In this document: in pieces, positions 17,389 through 49,502 of the stretch
Layout of the letters: each line of letters begins with the position of its first letter
Numbering within the stretch: position 1 is the stretch's first letter
The notes under the pieces: generated by a model
Told to the model about the DNA's origin: nothing
Seen by the model: only the letters and a program-made list of their open reading frames with translations
The model's database searches: none
Made by a program: the position numbers and the translations under genes
DNA from: Planctomycetota bacterium
Lineage (GTDB): Bacteria > Planctomycetota > UBA1135 > UBA2386
Length of the DNA: 64,000 nt
Assembly: GCA_965228735.1 (NCBI GenBank)
Contig: OZ245838.1
Location: 2,688,001 to 2,752,000, forward strand
Direction of reading: 5' to 3'

Positions 17389-17505
17389 ATGGCGGTACCG
17401 AACCCGCTTCAAATCCGCCACCGGCAACTCGGCGGGAGAGCCGATGGGTTGCGGAACCGGGCCGGCGGCGCCGTGGCGAATACGAAGCGGGTTCGGTACT
17501 GCCAC
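17389..17505. repeat. REP/REPIN-like palindromic element, intron-free copy
   Basis: 33-bp imperfect inverted arms (17389-17421 / 17473-17505) around a 51-bp spacer; left arm identical to 46240-46272. Confidence 0.85.
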
Positions 17506-33928: not shown

Positions 33929-34135
33929 GACTCCGGGCCCGCCAAGAAAGCGCGAGCCCCACTCATGCATCGTCGTTTCACGACCAGCCACCCTCGAGGC
34001 CGGTCGGGCGCCAATTGGCGCCACCCAATCAAGCGCAAGAACACCGCGCGACCGGACAACCCTTTCGCGATTCGAACGACCGCGTCACCGCCGAGCAGCG
34101 CCCAACGGCCTCCCACTCGCGCACGCCCCTCCGCC

Positions 34136-34228
34136 CAGAACGCTGCAGTTCGAACCTGGTTCCGTACGCACGCGCAGGCTCCGTACGCACGCGCAGAACG
34201 CTGCAGTTCGAACCTGGTTCCGTACGCA
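34136..34228. repeat. Two identical 35-bp direct repeats carrying the REP-like core
   Basis: CAGAACGCTGCAGTTCGAACCTGGTTCCGTACGCA at 34136-34170 and 34194-34228; reverse complement contains GTACGGAACCAGGTTCGAA. Confidence 0.85.
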
Positions 34229-34414
34229 ACCCCCGTACGAGGGCGTATTGCGTCCCAATTGCGAGGGCGCGTAGCGCCCAAGCAATTCCCCCGCTGGTTG
34301 GTAGGCGCCAGTTGGCGTCCTCGCCCGAGTGTCGCTTCGCCCCAACCAGCGGACAAAGGCCGACGCCGCTGTCGCTCGGCGGTCAAGCCAACCGAGCCGG
34401 TCGGCGGCCGCGGC

Positions 34415-35781: not shown

Positions 35782-35857
35782 TGGCAGGGCAGCAAGGACT
35801 CGAACCCTGAACCGGTTGATTTGGAATCAACTGCTCTACCAATTGAGCTACTACCCT
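35782..35857 (-). tRNA. tRNA-Trp (CCA)
   Basis: Cloverleaf; anticodon arm GTTGA-TTCCAAA-TCAAC; encoded CCA end. Confidence 0.97.
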
Positions 35858-36054
35858 CCAGGATTGACAGGACCGGCAGCCCCCCGAAGAAGCTGCCGGG
35901 CCAGTTGTCGGGCCGAGCAGTGTAGCAACGACGCCGGCTGGCGCCGCCACAAACCACTGGATCGGCCCACCGAAATCGCCGTCCGCTGGAGAACGGGACG
36001 CCGAGTTCGGCCAGTGACTGCAGGTCGCAACCTGCGAGCGATTGCGAACTGCGA

Positions 36055-37257
<1,203 letters not shown>

Positions 37258-37291
37258 GAGAGTCTAGAGACTGATGAAGCGGAGTATCCGA

Positions 37292-37366
<75 letters not shown>

Positions 37367-37408
37367 AGCCGACAGTTGAAAGTCGAAGATGACGTGAATC
37401 GAAAGATC

Positions 37409-37482
37409 TGGAGCGGGTGAAGGGAATCGAACCCTCGTCACCAGTTTGGAAGACTGGAGCTCTACCATTGAGCTACACCCGC
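37409..37482 (-). tRNA. tRNA-Gly (TCC)
   Basis: Anticodon arm CCAGT-CTTCCAA-ACTGG; CCA end. Confidence 0.97.
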
Positions 37483-37664
37483 ATGAGCCACGCGTGCGAC
37501 CGCCGCCGCGTCAAGGGTCGCGCGCATCGAACGTGTCGATCCGGACGAGCCGATCTGCAGCAGACGACGCCTGAGCGACGCATGCAGACAACACAAGAAC
37601 GCGGATGCTCCGTCGCGAACCCGATCCCCTCTTCGCGAGAGCGTCTCGGTGTCGGTCAGGAAAC

Positions 37665-37749
37665 TGGTGGGCGGAGCAGGATTCGAACCTGCGAAGGCTG
37701 AGCCGCCAGATTTACAGTCTGGTCCATTTGACCACTTTGGTATCCGCCC
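37665..37749 (-). tRNA. tRNA-Tyr (GTA)
   Basis: Anticodon arm CCAGA-CTGTAAA-TCTGG; long variable arm; CCA end. Confidence 0.97.
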
Positions 37750-37840
37750 GAAGTTGCGTTCGTGCGCTGCCTTTCCTTCGACGCCGCGCCCGCGAGCCTC
37801 GCCACATCGGGGGTTCCGATCCGGATCTAGCCCAGGGGTC

Positions 37841-37916
37841 TGGAGCTAGCGATGGGACTCGAACCCATAACCTCTTGATTACAAATCAAGAGCTCTACCG
37901 GTTGAGCTACGCTAGC
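37841..37916 (-). tRNA. tRNA-Thr (TGT)
   Basis: Anticodon arm CTTGA-TTTGTAA-TCAAG; CCA end; classic Thr-Tyr-Gly-Thr-tuf order. Confidence 0.97.
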
Positions 37917-39648: not shown

Positions 39649-39749
39649 CCCGTACGGAACCTGGTTCAAACCGCAAGGCTGCCAAGCGAGCGCCGCCGAA
39701 GGCGGCTCTCGCGCGGCAGCCTTGCGGTTTGAACCAGGTTCCGTACGGG
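39649..39749. repeat. REP/REPIN-like palindrome with perfect 35-bp arms
   Basis: 39649-39683 is the exact reverse complement of 39715-39749; lies 2 nt beyond the mutS2 stop. Confidence 0.9.
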
Positions 39750-44552: not shown

Positions 44553-45652
44553 TACTGCTGCAGCCGCAGGTCGTCGAGCGTCGGCGCCTTCGCGGGTGCG
44601 GGGCCGAGGACCGCGGCGATCCGCTCGAGGCGGTAGGGCACGGCGAGCACGCGCTCGAATGCCTCGTGACCATCGGCCGCTTCGTCGCCGCGCGCGAGGT
44701 AGTAGCGGAACGCGGCCCGCGCCCTGGGCCACCACACGCGGCGCTCTTCGTCGCCTTCGTTCTGCGGCATCGCGTCGTAGTAGATCAGACCGATGTTGAG
44801 AGCAGCTCGCGCCGAGTCCGGGTCGAGCTCGAGGACCTGCACGTAGGTGCTCAACGCCTCGCGCGGGCGCTCGGCCTGCCACAGCGCCGCCGCCCGATGC
44901 ATGCGCAGCTCGACGTCGTTCGGCGCCCGGGCCTCGAGCGTTTCGAGCAGCTCGAGCGCGCGATCGATGCGCACGATGCGATAGATCAGCATCGCCGCGT
45001 ATTCGCGCATCACGAGGTAGTCGGTCGGCTGCTGATCGAGGAACGCCTCGTAGTCCCGCGCGGCGCGCGCGTACTTGCCGAGCGCCGTGTAGGCCCGCGC
45101 GCGGTCGAGGTAGGCCTCGTGCAGCGTCGGGTCATTGACGAGCGCCGCGGTGAACGCGTCGACGGCTCCGGCGAACTGCCCCTGCCCGCGCTTCACGCGG
45201 CCGAGCGAGAGGTGGGCCCAGCCGAACGACGGATGCTCCGCCAGGATCTCGGCGAGCGCCTGTCCCTTGTCGTAGGACGTCGCCTTGAGGCGCGCCGCGA
45301 CGTAGGGCCCGACCGGCGAATCGCGCTCCGGCAGCTCCACGCGGTAGTAGCGTCGCATCTCGGCCTCGGACTCGCCACCGATCGACAGCGCCGCGTCCTG
45401 GTAGGCCAGGTGCGCACGCACGAGATCCGGGCTCTCGCGCACGACGACGCTGAGCAGCCCCCACGCGGCCTCGGGATCGCCGGCCTCGACGAAGCCGCGC
45501 GCCTCGTCCCACTGCGCGGCGACCGCGGGCGCGGGCTCGGCGTAGATCTTCGGGTCCGGCGCGCCGAGCGCGCGCGTCGGCCCGACGCAAGCGGGCGCGA
45601 GCATGCCGGCGATGCACAGCGCCAGCGCGGCAACCGAACGCAGTGGGCTCAC
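44552..45652 (-). CDS. TPR-repeat lipoprotein
   Basis: Signal ending APAC; TPR-like helices (WAHLSLG, AYLDRARAY, AALNIG). Confidence 0.8.
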   Translation of the reverse strand: MSPLRSVAALALCIAGMLAPACVGPTRALGAPDPKIYAEPAPAVAAQWDEARGFVEAGDPEAAWGLLSVVVRESPDLVRAHLAYQDAALSIGGESEAEMRRYYRVELPERDSPVGPYVAARLKATSYDKGQALAEILAEHPSFGWAHLSLGRVKRGQGQFAGAVDAFTAALVNDPTLHEAYLDRARAYTALGKYARAARDYEAFLDQQPTDYLVMREYAAMLIYRIVRIDRALELLETLEARAPNDVELRMHRAAALWQAERPREALSTYVQVLELDPDSARAALNIGLIYYDAMPQNEGDEERRVWWPRARAAFRYYLARGDEAADGHEAFERVLAVPYRLERIAAVLGPAPAKAPTLDDLRLQQ

Positions 45653-46197
45653 GATCGCGTCAGCTGACCGTCCTCGATGACGAACTCGCGCGGTTCCTTC
45701 ACGTCGCGCGTCCCGCGCAGGCGGACGAACACGTTGCGCTCGCCCTCCGCCCTGGTGTCGAGCGTCAGCGCGTGCGTGCCCTGGTAGATCCGCAGCCGCA
45801 CCTCGTTGATCACGGTGAACGTCGTGCGCATGCCGCGCGGCTGCCCGGGCTCCGTGATGTCCGGCGGCGCGCCGACCGACACGATGAACGGCGTCTCCGC
45901 GCGCCCGAGCGTGTTGGTCCAGATCTTGTCGATGTAGGTCCCGTCCGGCGCGCCCTCATGCCGCAGCGTGTGCGCCTGCGGATCCGTCGCCGGCTGGAAC
46001 ACGTACTCGTTGAAGTTGCCCGTCAGCTCGATGAGCAGCGTGTTGCAGCCGACCTCGGTGCCGGTCAGGTAGGGCCGCAGGAGCCGTTCGGTCTCCGCCG
46101 CGATCTGCCCCGGATCGGCCGGCGCGCCGCTCGCGCACGCGCCCAGCAGAACCAGCAGCCCGAGTGCGCCCCGCATCGACTTTTGTGATCTCGCCAT
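45649..46197 (-). CDS. Hypothetical lipoprotein
   Basis: Signal ending LGAC; 4-nt overlap with the TPR gene. Confidence 0.7.
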   Translation of the reverse strand: MARSQKSMRGALGLLVLLGACASGAPADPGQIAAETERLLRPYLTGTEVGCNTLLIELTGNFNEYVFQPATDPQAHTLRHEGAPDGTYIDKIWTNTLGRAETPFIVSVGAPPDITEPGQPRGMRTTFTVINEVRLRIYQGTHALTLDTRAEGERNVFVRLRGTRDVKEPREFVIEDGQLTRS

Positions 46198-46339
46198 TCG
46201 TATCCTCAGTTTGCGCCCTCACGTTTCGCGCGTCCAGTCATGGCGGTACCGAACCCGCTTCAAATCCGCCACTGCCCAGCCTGCGCAACCGGCGTTCCGC
46301 CGCGTCGCTGGCGTAGTTTGCCCGTGGCGGATTCGAAGC

Positions 46340-48331
46340 GCCGGGTGGCCCTGGGGGTCTCCCCCCAGGGCTCCCACAGATCCGGACGTGCGCGGCTAAC
46401 GCATCCGGCTCGTCAGCGACAAGGGCTCGCTGCGTAGACCGACCGGGTCAGCCGGGGCGGAGGAAGCGGGTATGCACGCAGCAGTTGCTCGAAGCGGGCC
46501 CACGACATGTAGGCCGCCCGCGAGCGCCGGCTCAGCCACCGATGCCAGATGCGACGGGCCTCGTACCATACGCGACGTAACGCAGCAGAGTTGCCGGTCA
46601 CGCCGAAGTAGAGGTAGTGCCCCCGTAGCTTCGAGCACAGGGTGGAGTACTGGACGCGGACCTTGTCGTGCCGATTGCGACGGCACCAATCCCGTAGCCC
46701 AGTCAGGGTACGGGTCACGACGTGTCGTGTGGTGCGCCGCTGCACGGTCCATCGGCCGCGCCGGGAGCGTGACCAGTGATGGGTGAAGCCCAGGAAGTCG
46801 AAAGTGCCGCTCCCCGCCGCGCCGTCTTCGGGCGGTTGGAAGCGGACTAACCGGGTCTTGTCCGGATGCAGTGTGAGGCCGAAGCGCCCGAGCCTTTGGG
46901 CCAGGATCGACGACATCGCACGTGCATCGGCTTCGACGGCAAACAGGATCACGAAGTCGTCCGCATAGCGGACCAACTCCGCGCGACCGGCAAGCCTCGG
47001 CTTGACTTCCTCGACAAACCAACGGTCCAGCACTGCGTGCAAATAGATGTTCGCCAGCAGCGGCGAAATCACGCCTCCTTGTGGGGTGCCTTTGCGAGAG
47101 CGATGCAGCGCACCGTCCTCCTGCACCCCCGCCTTCAGCCACTTGTCGATCAGTCGACGGAACACTCCGTCGCGCACCCGCTGGTCGAGGATCGCTCGCA
47201 GATGGGTCGGCTCCAGGTTGTCGAAGAAACCTTGGATGTCGACTTCCAACAGCCAGCCGCCACCCATCGACATCGCATGCTTCCAAAGCGATTCCAGTGC
47301 CGTGTGCGGCGAGCGACCGGGACGGAAGCCGTGCGAGCAGTCCAAGAAGTCCTGCTCATATACCGCCTCCATCACTTGCGTCACCGCCCGCTGCAAGACC
47401 TTGTCCTCCAGCGTCGGCACTCCGATTGGACGCGTGCCACCCTTCCCTTTCGGGATGTGCACGCGCCGGACCGGTGGTGCGCGATAGCGCCCTGACTTCG
47501 CGCGTTCGTGCAGGTCCGCGAGGTTGCCCTCGAGATCCTGCTCGTAGTCGCGAGCCGTGACGCCGTCGACACCAGGAGCTTTGGACTTCTGCGTGCGGCG
47601 ATACGCCTCCCGCAGAAGCGCGATGTCCATGTGGTGTGCCAGTGTGGTCAGGACCAGGTCTGGTCGCTGCCTCGCCAGCTCCGCTACCCGCCGGAGTTTC
47701 GTGGAGACCTGCTCGGAGCCCGTCGTCTCCGTGGTCGGTCCGTCCAGCGGTTCCTTGTCGCCGGTGACGCCCTTCCCTCCGCCGGGTCCCCGTGGGGCGG
47801 GTTCCCCGGACTCTTTGGTACTATGACGCACTCCGACTCCCTCGTTGGCGTCCCGCGTCGCTTCGTTTCCTTCGCTCGGCGGTACCGGCCGTGTGTCCGG
47901 ATTCCTTGACGGCACCGACGCGGACACGACGTCGCGGCCCTGGAGAGTTGGTTTCCGGGCCCCAGCCGGAGTTGACGATCGGACCAATCGAGGGGATCCC
48001 AGGTTCCTGGGGAGTCCGATGGATGCGTGCGGTCGTTCTCAGGACCCCGGAGAGACTTCCGGGCCAAGCCGGTTGCGGCCCTTCCATGTTGCCTTCCGAT
48101 GAACCCACCACGTCGGCTCTCTCGCTGTCGGTACTTTCGGGGCTCAGTCGCGCCGCCCACATCCTCGCTGTCTACGCTTCGCAGCGGCGGTTACCCGGTC
48201 GCCACGCAAGACTCGCTTCCGGCTGGTGGCTAGCCTTCGCCGGGCGGGTTTCGTCACCCGCGGGACTCCAATACGGGGTTCTCATTCCTGTCAGGTCATG
48301 ATTTCTCCCGTCCAGGCTTCGCCTGGCGCAA
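46340..48331 (-). mobile_element. Group II intron (IIB-like, probably bacterial class E), 1992 nt
   Basis: 5' end TTGCGCC; domain V GAGCCGGATGCG...CACGTCCGGATC (46379-46411); domain VI hairpin with bulged A; EBS1 at 48101-48106 and EBS2 at 48129-48134; removal restores the flanking repeat arm exactly. Confidence 0.92.
46413..47747 (-). CDS. ltrA: Group II intron reverse transcriptase/maturase without an endonuclease domain
   Basis: KAPGVDG, RPIGVPTLEDK, SHGFRPGRS, GTPQGGVISPLLANIYL, RYADD, FDFLGF, LRGHYLYFG; start codon uncertain (frame is open to 47987). Confidence 0.93.
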   Translation of the reverse strand: MDGPTTETTGSEQVSTKLRRVAELARQRPDLVLTTLAHHMDIALLREAYRRTQKSKAPGVDGVTARDYEQDLEGNLADLHERAKSGRYRAPPVRRVHIPKGKGGTRPIGVPTLEDKVLQRAVTQVMEAVYEQDFLDCSHGFRPGRSPHTALESLWKHAMSMGGGWLLEVDIQGFFDNLEPTHLRAILDQRVRDGVFRRLIDKWLKAGVQEDGALHRSRKGTPQGGVISPLLANIYLHAVLDRWFVEEVKPRLAGRAELVRYADDFVILFAVEADARAMSSILAQRLGRFGLTLHPDKTRLVRFQPPEDGAAGSGTFDFLGFTHHWSRSRRGRWTVQRRTTRHVVTRTLTGLRDWCRRNRHDKVRVQYSTLCSKLRGHYLYFGVTGNSAALRRVWYEARRIWHRWLSRRSRAAYMSWARFEQLLRAYPLPPPRLTRSVYAASPCR

Positions 48332-48348
48332 GGGTTCGGTACCGCCAT

Positions 48349-49335
48349 CTAGTTGCGGGGGCCGCGGATGCCGACCGCGTCGCGCACGAGGGCCATGGTC
48401 TCTTCGGCCGCGGTGCGCGCCTTCTGGGCGCCGTGGGCCAGGATCTCGTCGAGTTCGTCCGGGCGCTCGCGCAGCTCGTTCGCGCGTTCGCGGATCGGGC
48501 CCTTCACGGCCTCGAGGTTGCTGGCGAGCCTGCCCTTGCAGTCGACGCAACCGAGCGCGGCGCTGCGGCAGCCCTCGGCGATGTCCGCGCGCTCGGCCTC
48601 GGACGAGAAGAACCCGTGGTAGGCGTAGATGTTGCAGACCTCGGGCGTGCCCGGGTCCTTGCGCTGCACCCGCGCCGGGTCGGTCTTGGCCGAGCGCAGC
48701 TTCTTCAGCGTCTGCTCGGGGGTCTCGAACAGCCCGATCTCGTTGCCCTTGCTCTTGCTCATCTTGGACTCGCCGTCGAGGCCCATGACGCGCGGGGCGT
48801 TGCTCTTCACGACCTTCGGCTCGGGGAAGACCTTCTCGTAGATCGCGTTGAACCGCCGCACGGTCTCGCGCGCGAGCTCGAGGTGCTGGTTCTGGTCGTC
48901 GCCGACGGGCACGGCCTCGGCGCGATAGAGCACGATGTCGGCCGTCTGCAGCACGGGATACGTGAACAGTCCGGCGTTGATGTTGTCGGGCTGCTGCGCG
49001 CTCTTGTCCTTGAACTGCGTCATGCGGTTGAGGTCGCCGAGCTGCGTGAGGCAGGTCAGGATCCAGGACAGCTCGACGTGCTGCGGCACCGCGGATTGGA
49101 CGAACAGCGTCGCCTTCTCCGGGTCGACGCCGCTCGCGAGCACGCCGATCGCGACCTCGCGCACGGCGTTCCTCAGCACGTCCGCGGCAGGCCGCTGCGT
49201 CAGCGCGTGCAGATCGACGATGCAGAAGAACGACTCGTATTGCTCCTGCAGCTCGACCCAGTTGACGATCGCGCCGAGGTAGTTGCCGATGTGCAGATTG
49301 CCGGTCGGCTGGACGCCTGACATGGTTCGGACCAT
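48349..49335 (-). CDS. trpS: Tryptophanyl-tRNA synthetase
   Basis: SGVQPTGNLHIGNYLGA, YPVLQTADI, VPVGDDQ, KMSKS. Confidence 0.98.
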   Translation of the reverse strand: MVRTMSGVQPTGNLHIGNYLGAIVNWVELQEQYESFFCIVDLHALTQRPAADVLRNAVREVAIGVLASGVDPEKATLFVQSAVPQHVELSWILTCLTQLGDLNRMTQFKDKSAQQPDNINAGLFTYPVLQTADIVLYRAEAVPVGDDQNQHLELARETVRRFNAIYEKVFPEPKVVKSNAPRVMGLDGESKMSKSKGNEIGLFETPEQTLKKLRSAKTDPARVQRKDPGTPEVCNIYAYHGFFSSEAERADIAEGCRSAALGCVDCKGRLASNLEAVKGPIRERANELRERPDELDEILAHGAQKARTAAEETMALVRDAVGIRGPRN

Positions 49336-49502
49336 GGCTGCCGGTATAGCCGGCACGAATTCGGTCACAACGGCGGACGTGAGAATGCGCTGAGGCCTGC
49401 CCCCGAGCCGCCCGCCATTCCCCGGTTTCCCAACTCGACCCGGCCCGCCCCGGCAGTATGTTCCCTGGCCAAGAGATGGCGCGTCGAAGCCGCACCCCAG
49501 TC

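Follow-up and report, generated by a model that had tools for sequence, protein, structure and literature searches.

A group II intron that is present in ten copies in the genome of a member of the Planctomycetota (lineage UBA2386; assembly GCA_965228735.1) is associated with a strongly orientation-dependent loss of its own target sites. The copy from which we started lies on the minus strand at positions 46340 to 48331 of a 64,000-nt stretch of contig OZ245838.1 (2,688,001 to 2,752,000), hereafter the window, within one arm of an inverted doublet of REP (repetitive extragenic palindromic) sequences. We propose that the intron likely retrohomes into the REP arm whose target strand is the lagging-strand template, using its exon-binding sites (EBS1 to EBS3) to recognize the intron-binding sites (IBS1 to IBS3) of the arm, and that selection against invaded alleles has likely enriched arms that escape through a single change in IBS2. 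Plain coordinates are window positions; G000 denotes the host genome (a single contig, C1, of 7.19 Mb and 69% GC), other G numbers denote genomes of relatives, and L numbers denote loci.

Ten insertions at one base of a dispersed repeat

The ten copies comprise eight intact introns (six identical and two with one common substitution) and two that are interrupted by insertion sequences (IS). All are intergenic and sit at the same base of the same repeat, TGGCGGTACCGAACCC|GYTTCRAATCCGCCAC, with no target duplication. For the window copy, these are the bounds and the duplication-free junction that the original prediction had read from the window, and the arm restored by removing the intron differs from its partner at one base. 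The 5' half of the invaded arm (48332 to 48347, minus strand) begins 1 nt past the trpS stop codon and holds IBS1 (48332 to 48337) and IBS2 (48339 to 48344); the 3' half (46324 to 46339, minus strand), placed by sequence and junction comparison, holds IBS3, the G at 46339. Next to it lie a 51-bp spacer of unique sequence (46273 to 46323, by spacer comparison) and the empty, intact partner arm (46241 to 46272, plus strand). The ten junctions vary only at -1, where a T able to wobble with EBS1 occurs, and at -7, where a G occurs in the unpaired linker; IBS2 is perfect in every insertion.

The target arm is 32 nt long, and the intron-free genome sequence contains 133 such arms at up to six mismatches, arranged as 60 inverted doublets and 13 single arms (73 elements in total), with 53 of the doublets measuring exactly 115 bp. 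At up to eight mismatches there were 139 hits, compared with 0 to 1 for each of five shuffled arm patterns; the set was redone at six, which dropped 6 of the 139. The intron-free genome has 88 sites of the form IBS2-N-IBS1-G, of which 83 lie in arms, 4 belong to truncated arms, and 1 lies at another location; the sequence requirement by itself thus restricts the intron to the repeat. These counts bear out the proposal that EBS-guided homing takes the intron into a multicopy intergenic REP-like doublet, found far more than twice in the genome and offering one site in each orientation per element.

We rejected an assembly artefact as the source of the copies, since in four runs, each from a different study, the summed contig depth of the intron is ∼10 times that of its flanks, and an independent metagenome contig contains the junction of another copy, there without the IS. 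The joint expected across an intron-free trpS locus was not seen in the contigs of the four runs, which is uninformative on the empty allele because contigs drop rare variants. The IS that interrupt two intron copies (G000:C1:6552503-6553811, 340495-341800, and 342149-343573) have 5 and 9 full copies in the genome, and from their protein features we take them to be IS3-like and IS256-like; L112 carries one of these intron loci with the IS absent. Two copies (G000:C1:6840633-6840731 and 1603914-1604012) have an identical spacer and far arm, while all other spacer pairs are diverged, and they differ from each other at -1 and at intron nucleotide 1082, a pattern suggestive of a gene conversion tract that extends from the intron across the REPIN (REP doublet forming a hairpin).

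Guide sequences covary with their targets

Domain I carries EBS1 (GGGUUC, 48101 to 48106, minus strand) and EBS2 (GUACCG, 48129 to 48134, minus strand), each of which pairs at 6/6 positions with IBS1 and IBS2, respectively, as originally predicted, and EBS3 (C, 48042, minus strand), which pairs with the G at +1 and is the best covarying column. We compared guides and exons across 36 loci with a clear 5' end, this intron included, after setting aside duplicates and poorly bounded loci; the EBS1 loop could be parsed in 28 and the EBS2 segment in 31. At a threshold of at least 5/6 paired bases, EBS1 matched its own exon in 27 of 28 introns, compared with 5.7% of cross pairs, and for EBS2 the figures were 16 of 31 and 3.7%. 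In 20 of 26 aligned introns, the base in the EBS3 column is complementary to that at +1; the row of this intron was shifted by one column, and its base was assigned by eye. The covariation among homologous introns that the original prediction had proposed as a check is therefore present, and at the level of sequence it confirms IIB-like targeting through EBS1-IBS1, EBS2-IBS2, and EBS3-IBS3. We infer that the EBS became tuned to the repeat; the nearest homologous proteins found are at most 65% identical, which places the retargeting step itself beyond reconstruction.

Insertions follow the direction of replication

From cumulative GC skew, the origin maps to about 4.56 Mb and the terminus to about 1.25 Mb. 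Nine of the ten introns read in the leading-strand sense, so that their target strand is the lagging-strand template (binomial P = 0.011), and in the six filled elements whose two arms have equal gene context, all six insertions chose the lagging-template arm. Targeting of the lagging-strand template is known for RmInt1 and RmInt2 (PMC5894124, PMC4615759). The two orientations are thus not equivalent, contrary to what had been assumed.

Target sites are eroded on the lagging-template arm

We call an arm vulnerable if its orientation puts the target strand on the lagging-strand template. Among the 123 empty arms, IBS2 is mismatched in 41 of 58 vulnerable arms and in 6 of 65 in the other orientation (P = 7.6e-13). 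The same asymmetry holds within elements, where each doublet contributes both orientations: in 50 empty doublets, an IBS1 or IBS2 mismatch is confined to the vulnerable arm in 33 and to the other arm in 2, with 4 mismatched in both and 11 in neither (P = 3.7e-8). Counting filled arms as well, a mismatch has ∼13-fold higher odds in the vulnerable than in the other orientation (43:24 versus 8:58). Insertions occupy 9 of 24 intact vulnerable arms and none of the 43 mismatched ones (P = 3e-5); in the other orientation, 1 intact arm of 58 is filled. Each of the ten insertions is in a doublet; among unpaired arms, a single one combines an intact target with the vulnerable orientation.

The excess falls on two positions of IBS2, -12 (17 vulnerable versus 3 other arms) and -11 (20 versus 2). 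All three alternative bases are used at each, and changes at -12 and -11 never occur in one arm (P = 1.8e-4). The remaining GTAC bases are changed in 2, 2, and 0 of the 58 vulnerable empty arms and IBS1 in 6 of 58. The polarity is present on both replichores, and dividing the genome close to the origin and terminus given by GC skew maximizes it. Both elements of the window follow this pattern. The empty sites at 46256/46257 and 17405/17406 and the one-mismatch site at 17488/17489, all named in the original prediction, exist in the sequence as described; by arm classification, the two perfect ones lie in the protected, rarely used orientation (the partner arm of the intron and the left arm of a second element, 17390 to 17421, plus strand, empty and intact), and the mismatched one lies in the vulnerable right arm of that second element (17473 to 17504, minus strand), which is empty and differs in IBS2 at -12.

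Artefacts of strand composition, gene orientation, or ascertainment were ruled out by four controls. Other G columns of the arm show almost no change (3 of 290 vulnerable versus 1 of 325 other), the polarity is independent of gene orientation, it stays the same if positions -16 to -11 are left out of the arm search, and the equivalent columns of a sister REP family show changes in 0 of 83 vulnerable versus 5 of 100 other arms. Clonal spread of one mutation was likewise rejected, as arms with a common change do not have common spacers (P = 0.27 for clustering of spacers by mutation). In an intron-free relative, G013, whose proteins include no homologue of the intron protein and whose genome has related REP families, 94 of 142 arms are perfect and split 42:52 by orientation (P = 0.35; split counted by hand), and a second REP family of G013 shows no polarity (93 arms, P = 0.19).

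Contigs from other samples also contain what appears to be a further insertion. In runs X9 and X10, from one study, a loose-end consensus built from two junction contigs (ties resolved to the alphabetically first letter) is matched at 30 of 30 positions by the flank of a known copy together with the flank of arm G000:5724221. In G000 this arm has no insertion, and it belongs to the intact vulnerable arms, which number 15 among the 123 empty ones. By deconvolution, we read this as an eleventh insertion at G000:5724221, a single event.

We hypothesize that the intron is transcribed from neighboring genes, spliced, and then reverse spliced into an arm exposed on the single-stranded lagging-strand template under the guidance of EBS1, EBS2, and EBS3. 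Priming would be provided by the nascent lagging strand at the fork, by analogy with RmInt1 and RmInt2. A single IBS2 mismatch would block homing, and if filled alleles were purged, resistant arms with one change would accumulate locus by locus. Positions -12 and -11 would take the escapes as the IBS positions free to vary without loss of the REP core; both differ among the REP families that flank RAYT (REP-associated tyrosine transposase) genes while the core is kept, which would be why escapes concentrate there.

The target repeat behaves as a REPIN

Single arms and doublets both fold as hairpins, and the insertion point is the loop of the arm hairpin. The spacers of the doublets are largely unrelated in sequence. 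By our codon-based gene calls, convergent genes border 34 of 60 doublets, compared with 235 of 2,224 gaps in the background; of the 133 arms, 85 lie at most 30 nt past a co-oriented stop codon. A sister family of more than 160 arms has the core GTAC-S-G-W-ACC-N-G-N-TTC in common with the target family. Its doublets mostly span ∼89 bp between core ends, and it often lies inside or directly after target-family arms, truncating them. In the window it forms a doublet at 39650 to 39748, not targeted by the intron and a member of the family used as a control above, and is also present at about 34130 to 34230.

The genome encodes a single RAYT-like protein (G000:C1:6715991-6717018, L111) that matches NF047646 with an E value of 5e-13 and 49 to 51 bits, below the cutoff of 80; a search with PF01797 gave no match to it. 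The gene is flanked mainly by sister-family arms together with one half arm of the target family, and arms with that core also flank its homologues in G013. This HUH protein has 342 amino acids and a weak sigma-factor-like match at its C terminus; homologues are found in G002, G013, G020, and G022, several of them flanked by inverted repeats. The target repeat behaves as a REPIN, and we infer that it depends on the RAYT-like gene. As to a miniature inverted-repeat transposable element, no target-site duplication was seen by eye in the arm flanks and the listed unpaired arms have no obvious transposase context, although a parent IS was not systematically searched for. A search of 60 related genomes at three mismatches did not detect the target repeat, and a scan for promoters and terminators returned nothing above shuffled sequences.

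Alternative explanations for the polarity

The main competing account accepts that the intron homes as described but assigns the polarity at -12 and -11 to the REP-RAYT system, through asymmetric element ends or nicking and repair on the lagging-strand template, with the intron taking the intact sites that remain. REPIN excision intermediates are asymmetric (PMC3116915), and TnpA-REP reads the tetranucleotide at the hairpin foot base-specifically (PMC3479197), with -11 being the G of the conserved GTAC. Against this account, target-derived bases would often differ at both -12 and -11, and no arm does; the other three bases of GTAC are nearly unchanged; the sister family, which directly flanks the RAYT-like gene, is free of changes at the equivalent columns in the vulnerable orientation; and neither REP family of G013 has the polarity. 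We consider this explanation unlikely. Selection could also act within the genome, if filled REPINs were too long for RAYT copying and those with resistant arms were copied more often with their polarity kept, in which case insertions could be harmless to the cell. REPINs have been proposed as replicators (PMC3116915) and every insertion is intergenic, but arms with a common mutation do not have common spacers and similar spacers hardly favor one orientation (781 versus 745 pairs), which, although descent could be masked where spacers are hypervariable, makes this model improbable.

The intron particle might instead be mutagenic at IBS2, with abortive reverse splicing or an RNA-DNA hybrid causing substitutions and selection playing no part. 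Such a process would predict the observed polarity and the observed stop after one change, but it leaves the sparing of IBS1, next to the cut, unexplained, and we know of no group II intron with position-specific mutagenesis of this sort; we regard it as very improbable. Least credible, to the point that we give it hardly any weight, is the original prediction in its full form, in which both arms are equally usable and harmless, and insertion is favored where a co-oriented gene supplies transcription. Nine of the ten filled arms do lie at most 23 nt past a co-oriented stop codon, and the sole copy that runs against the replication bias is co-oriented with its gene. The frequency of a co-oriented upstream gene among filled arms (9 of 10) is nevertheless not above that of intact empty arms (49 of 72, P = 0.14), which leaves a read-through preference unsupported. 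The near absence of insertions from intact arms of the other orientation speaks against equal use, and the strong depletion of intact sites in the orientation that the intron uses makes it doubtful that these landing sites are harmless.

Several observations weigh against our interpretation. The evidence comes from one genome. The direct contrast between G013 and G000 is modest (P = 0.011 with empty arms, 0.079 with filled arms included) and relies on the 94 perfect arms among 142 in G013, and vulnerable arms also show a weak excess of changes at +2 to +16 (37 of 58 versus 29 of 65, P = 0.046), outside IBS2. A second genome, G040, trends alike without reaching significance: of 7 discordant pairs, 6 have the IBS1/IBS3 mismatch in their vulnerable arm, a hand count (6 versus 1, one-sided P of about 0.06) that is small, post hoc, and confounded with element ends. 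The intron copies are 99.95 to 100% identical, and since ∼43 independent substitutions would need far longer to arise, repeated waves of invasion must be assumed. RmInt2 tolerates one IBS2 mismatch, which is found in 38% of selected insertions (PMC4615759). The exposure of the EBS hexamers in domain I, an expectation of the original prediction, held in part: both segments are unpaired in the Rfam alignment and in a 21-sequence consensus fold, but a single-sequence fold, itself uninformative with a z-score of -0.6, mostly pairs five of the six EBS1 bases (unpaired probability, 0.07 to 0.24). On balance, we still lean toward a three-party conflict, in which an RNA-guided retroelement parasitizes REPINs and the REPINs answer with dozens of independent one-base escapes on the lagging-template arm.

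The intron, its protein, and its class

The element is a mobile group II intron with a gene for reverse transcriptase (RT), as judged from its ribozyme structure, its RT/maturase, and its precise insertion, and is predicted to splice and retrohome. It is 1,992 nt long, with the same junction in all ten copies, and its RNA begins with UUGCG and ends with CCCGGC. Its 5' end lies 17 nt past the stop codon of the co-oriented trpS (48349 to 49368, minus strand; TIGR00233 above cutoff). The Rfam model RF02005 for the domain I to IV ribozyme matches at 48034 to 48252 with 123.5 bits against a gathering score of 49. No Rfam domain V or VI model reached its gathering score over 46340 to 46411, so an Rfam-only scan would miss the 3' end of this intron. 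From the sequence we recognize a domain V with an AGC triad and a 5-nt terminal loop (46379 to 46411, minus strand) and a domain VI (46340 to 46375, minus strand) whose candidate branch-point A, at 46346, is 7 nt from the end; both domains are also present in homologous introns by sequence comparison.

The intron-encoded RT/maturase (46413 to 47987, minus strand; start codon uncertain, with homology from near 47690) retains an intact YADD motif and has no endonuclease (En) domain. It scores 343.9 bits against TIGR04416 (cutoff of 300), and its only Pfam match is RVT_1. It scores 271 bits against the protein of the disrupted intron of pRmeGR4b and 178 against the other intron on that plasmid. 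In a 35-row protein tree, a 30-row clade (support 85/97, drawn open) includes the disrupted pRmeGR4b intron, which we take to be S.me.I4, and excludes the other intron of that plasmid; the disrupted one is the sole anchor labeled class E in the tree, which holds no class F anchor. That intron has been assigned to class E (PMC5894124), and a 5-nt domain V loop is a feature of IIE and IIF introns (PMC3753933). Together with the missing En domain, the loop and the protein grouping indicate that the intron probably belongs to bacterial class E (IIE). Class IIC was rejected, since its type lacks EBS2, whereas the EBS2 of this intron is present and covaries. A second group II intron, present once at G000:C1:7171600-7173750, encodes a protein that is 38% identical and falls outside the class E clade. 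Elsewhere in the window are five tRNA genes on the minus strand (35785 to 37916) and, downstream of the REPIN, a lipoprotein-like open reading frame of 182 amino acids (45649 to 46197, minus strand) with no match in Pfam or NCBIfam.

Homologous introns in relatives

None of the intron's own copies lies outside the repeat, as homing into a dedicated target had implied; homologues do sit in unrelated flanks, yet with correspondingly different EBS. Homologous introns have different guides and different targets, several of which are repeats and others genes or unique DNA. In G040 the homologous intron lies in one arm of a multicopy HUH-type locus (35 matches), and this genome has ∼17 diverged HUH/Y1-type genes (L241 to L257), each flanked by outward-facing hairpin arms. 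The homologous intron of G062 is in a dispersed repeat (20 matches). Related introns in G061 (L196 to L206 and L038) lie in runs of a tandem 11-nt repeat, including short copies ∼770 nt apart in tandem; these repeats are unsuitable for a polarity test. At L034, L042, L051, and L056, the targets presumably resemble integron attC sites. G022 contains fourteen near-identical copies of another group II RT (L188 to L190 and L127 to L134), several within ∼2 kb of copies of an HUH-type gene.

Relation to known systems and implications

Targeting of two opposed orientations has a published precedent in RmInt2 of Sinorhizobium meliloti, a class D (IIB3) intron that sits in both inverted repeats of ISRm17 (PMC4615759, PMC5894124). 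Both introns lack an endonuclease, target through EBS1, EBS2, and EBS3, and use paired inverted repeats that put one site on the lagging template. RmInt2 differs in its protein class and in targeting IS ends, where here the target is a noncoding 115-bp REP doublet with 133 arms; it tolerates an IBS2 mismatch, where IBS2 here is perfect in 10 of 10 insertions; and the accessible text describes no polarized erosion of its target. The class E/IIE introns S.me.I4 and Cl.be.I2 (PMC3753933, PMC3552965) resemble this intron in their 5-nt domain V loop, lack of an En domain, and possession of EBS2-IBS2, a pairing that is dispensable for splicing and for which a homing role is only proposed (PMC3753933), while the present genome supplies population-scale evidence for that role. 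Class IIC introns (PMC4424553) also occupy an intergenic hairpin context just past genes, but they have no EBS2 and read the hairpin, whereas this intron has full EBS1, EBS2, and EBS3 and enters the hairpin of the arm itself at its loop. Published cases include IIB introns next to attC sites (PMC7923331), and the target types named in reviews are homing sites, terminators, and attC (PMC4424553, PMC12584367).

REP-targeting IS (IS1397, ISKpn1, IS621, ISPpu9/10, and ISRm22; PMC1525189) likewise place every copy at one position of a REP family, but they are DNA transposases or recombinases, unlike the RNA-guided retroelement described here. A table in the same article lists 2 of 9 copies of a Pseudomonas putida group II intron as REP associated. 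The target repeat shares with REPIN-RAYT systems (PMC3116915) the fixed-length inverted REP doublets, variable spacers, extragenic position, and single RAYT-like gene flanked by related repeats; it differs in having GTAC rather than GTAG at the hairpin foot, a RAYT-like protein below the family cutoff with a C-terminal extension, and arms that differ by replication direction. EBS-guided homing into REPINs or polarized erosion of targets was not found in the literature searched, in which subscription journals were thinly covered and supplements fell outside the scope. The new element is the polarized erosion; endonuclease-less retrohoming itself is known.

Whether group II introns go extinct through host selection or site saturation is an open question, and selection against intron-loaded genomes has been argued from occupancy counts (PMC3522654). 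Here each repeat is its own control, with a vulnerable and a protected arm, and the ∼13-fold difference in odds points to selection on the target itself. The data add REPINs to the natural targets of EBS-guided introns, offer evidence that EBS2-IBS2 acts in the homing of class E-type introns, a point that PMC3753933 left open, and predict that 15 arms are invadable and 43 resistant. If our interpretation is correct, the spectrum of mismatches would serve as a selection screen, carried out in nature, of the rules by which the intron targets its sites and would directly measure what "safe" intergenic insertions cost, and replichore-polarized erosion could reveal past invasions in genomes from which the intron is gone.

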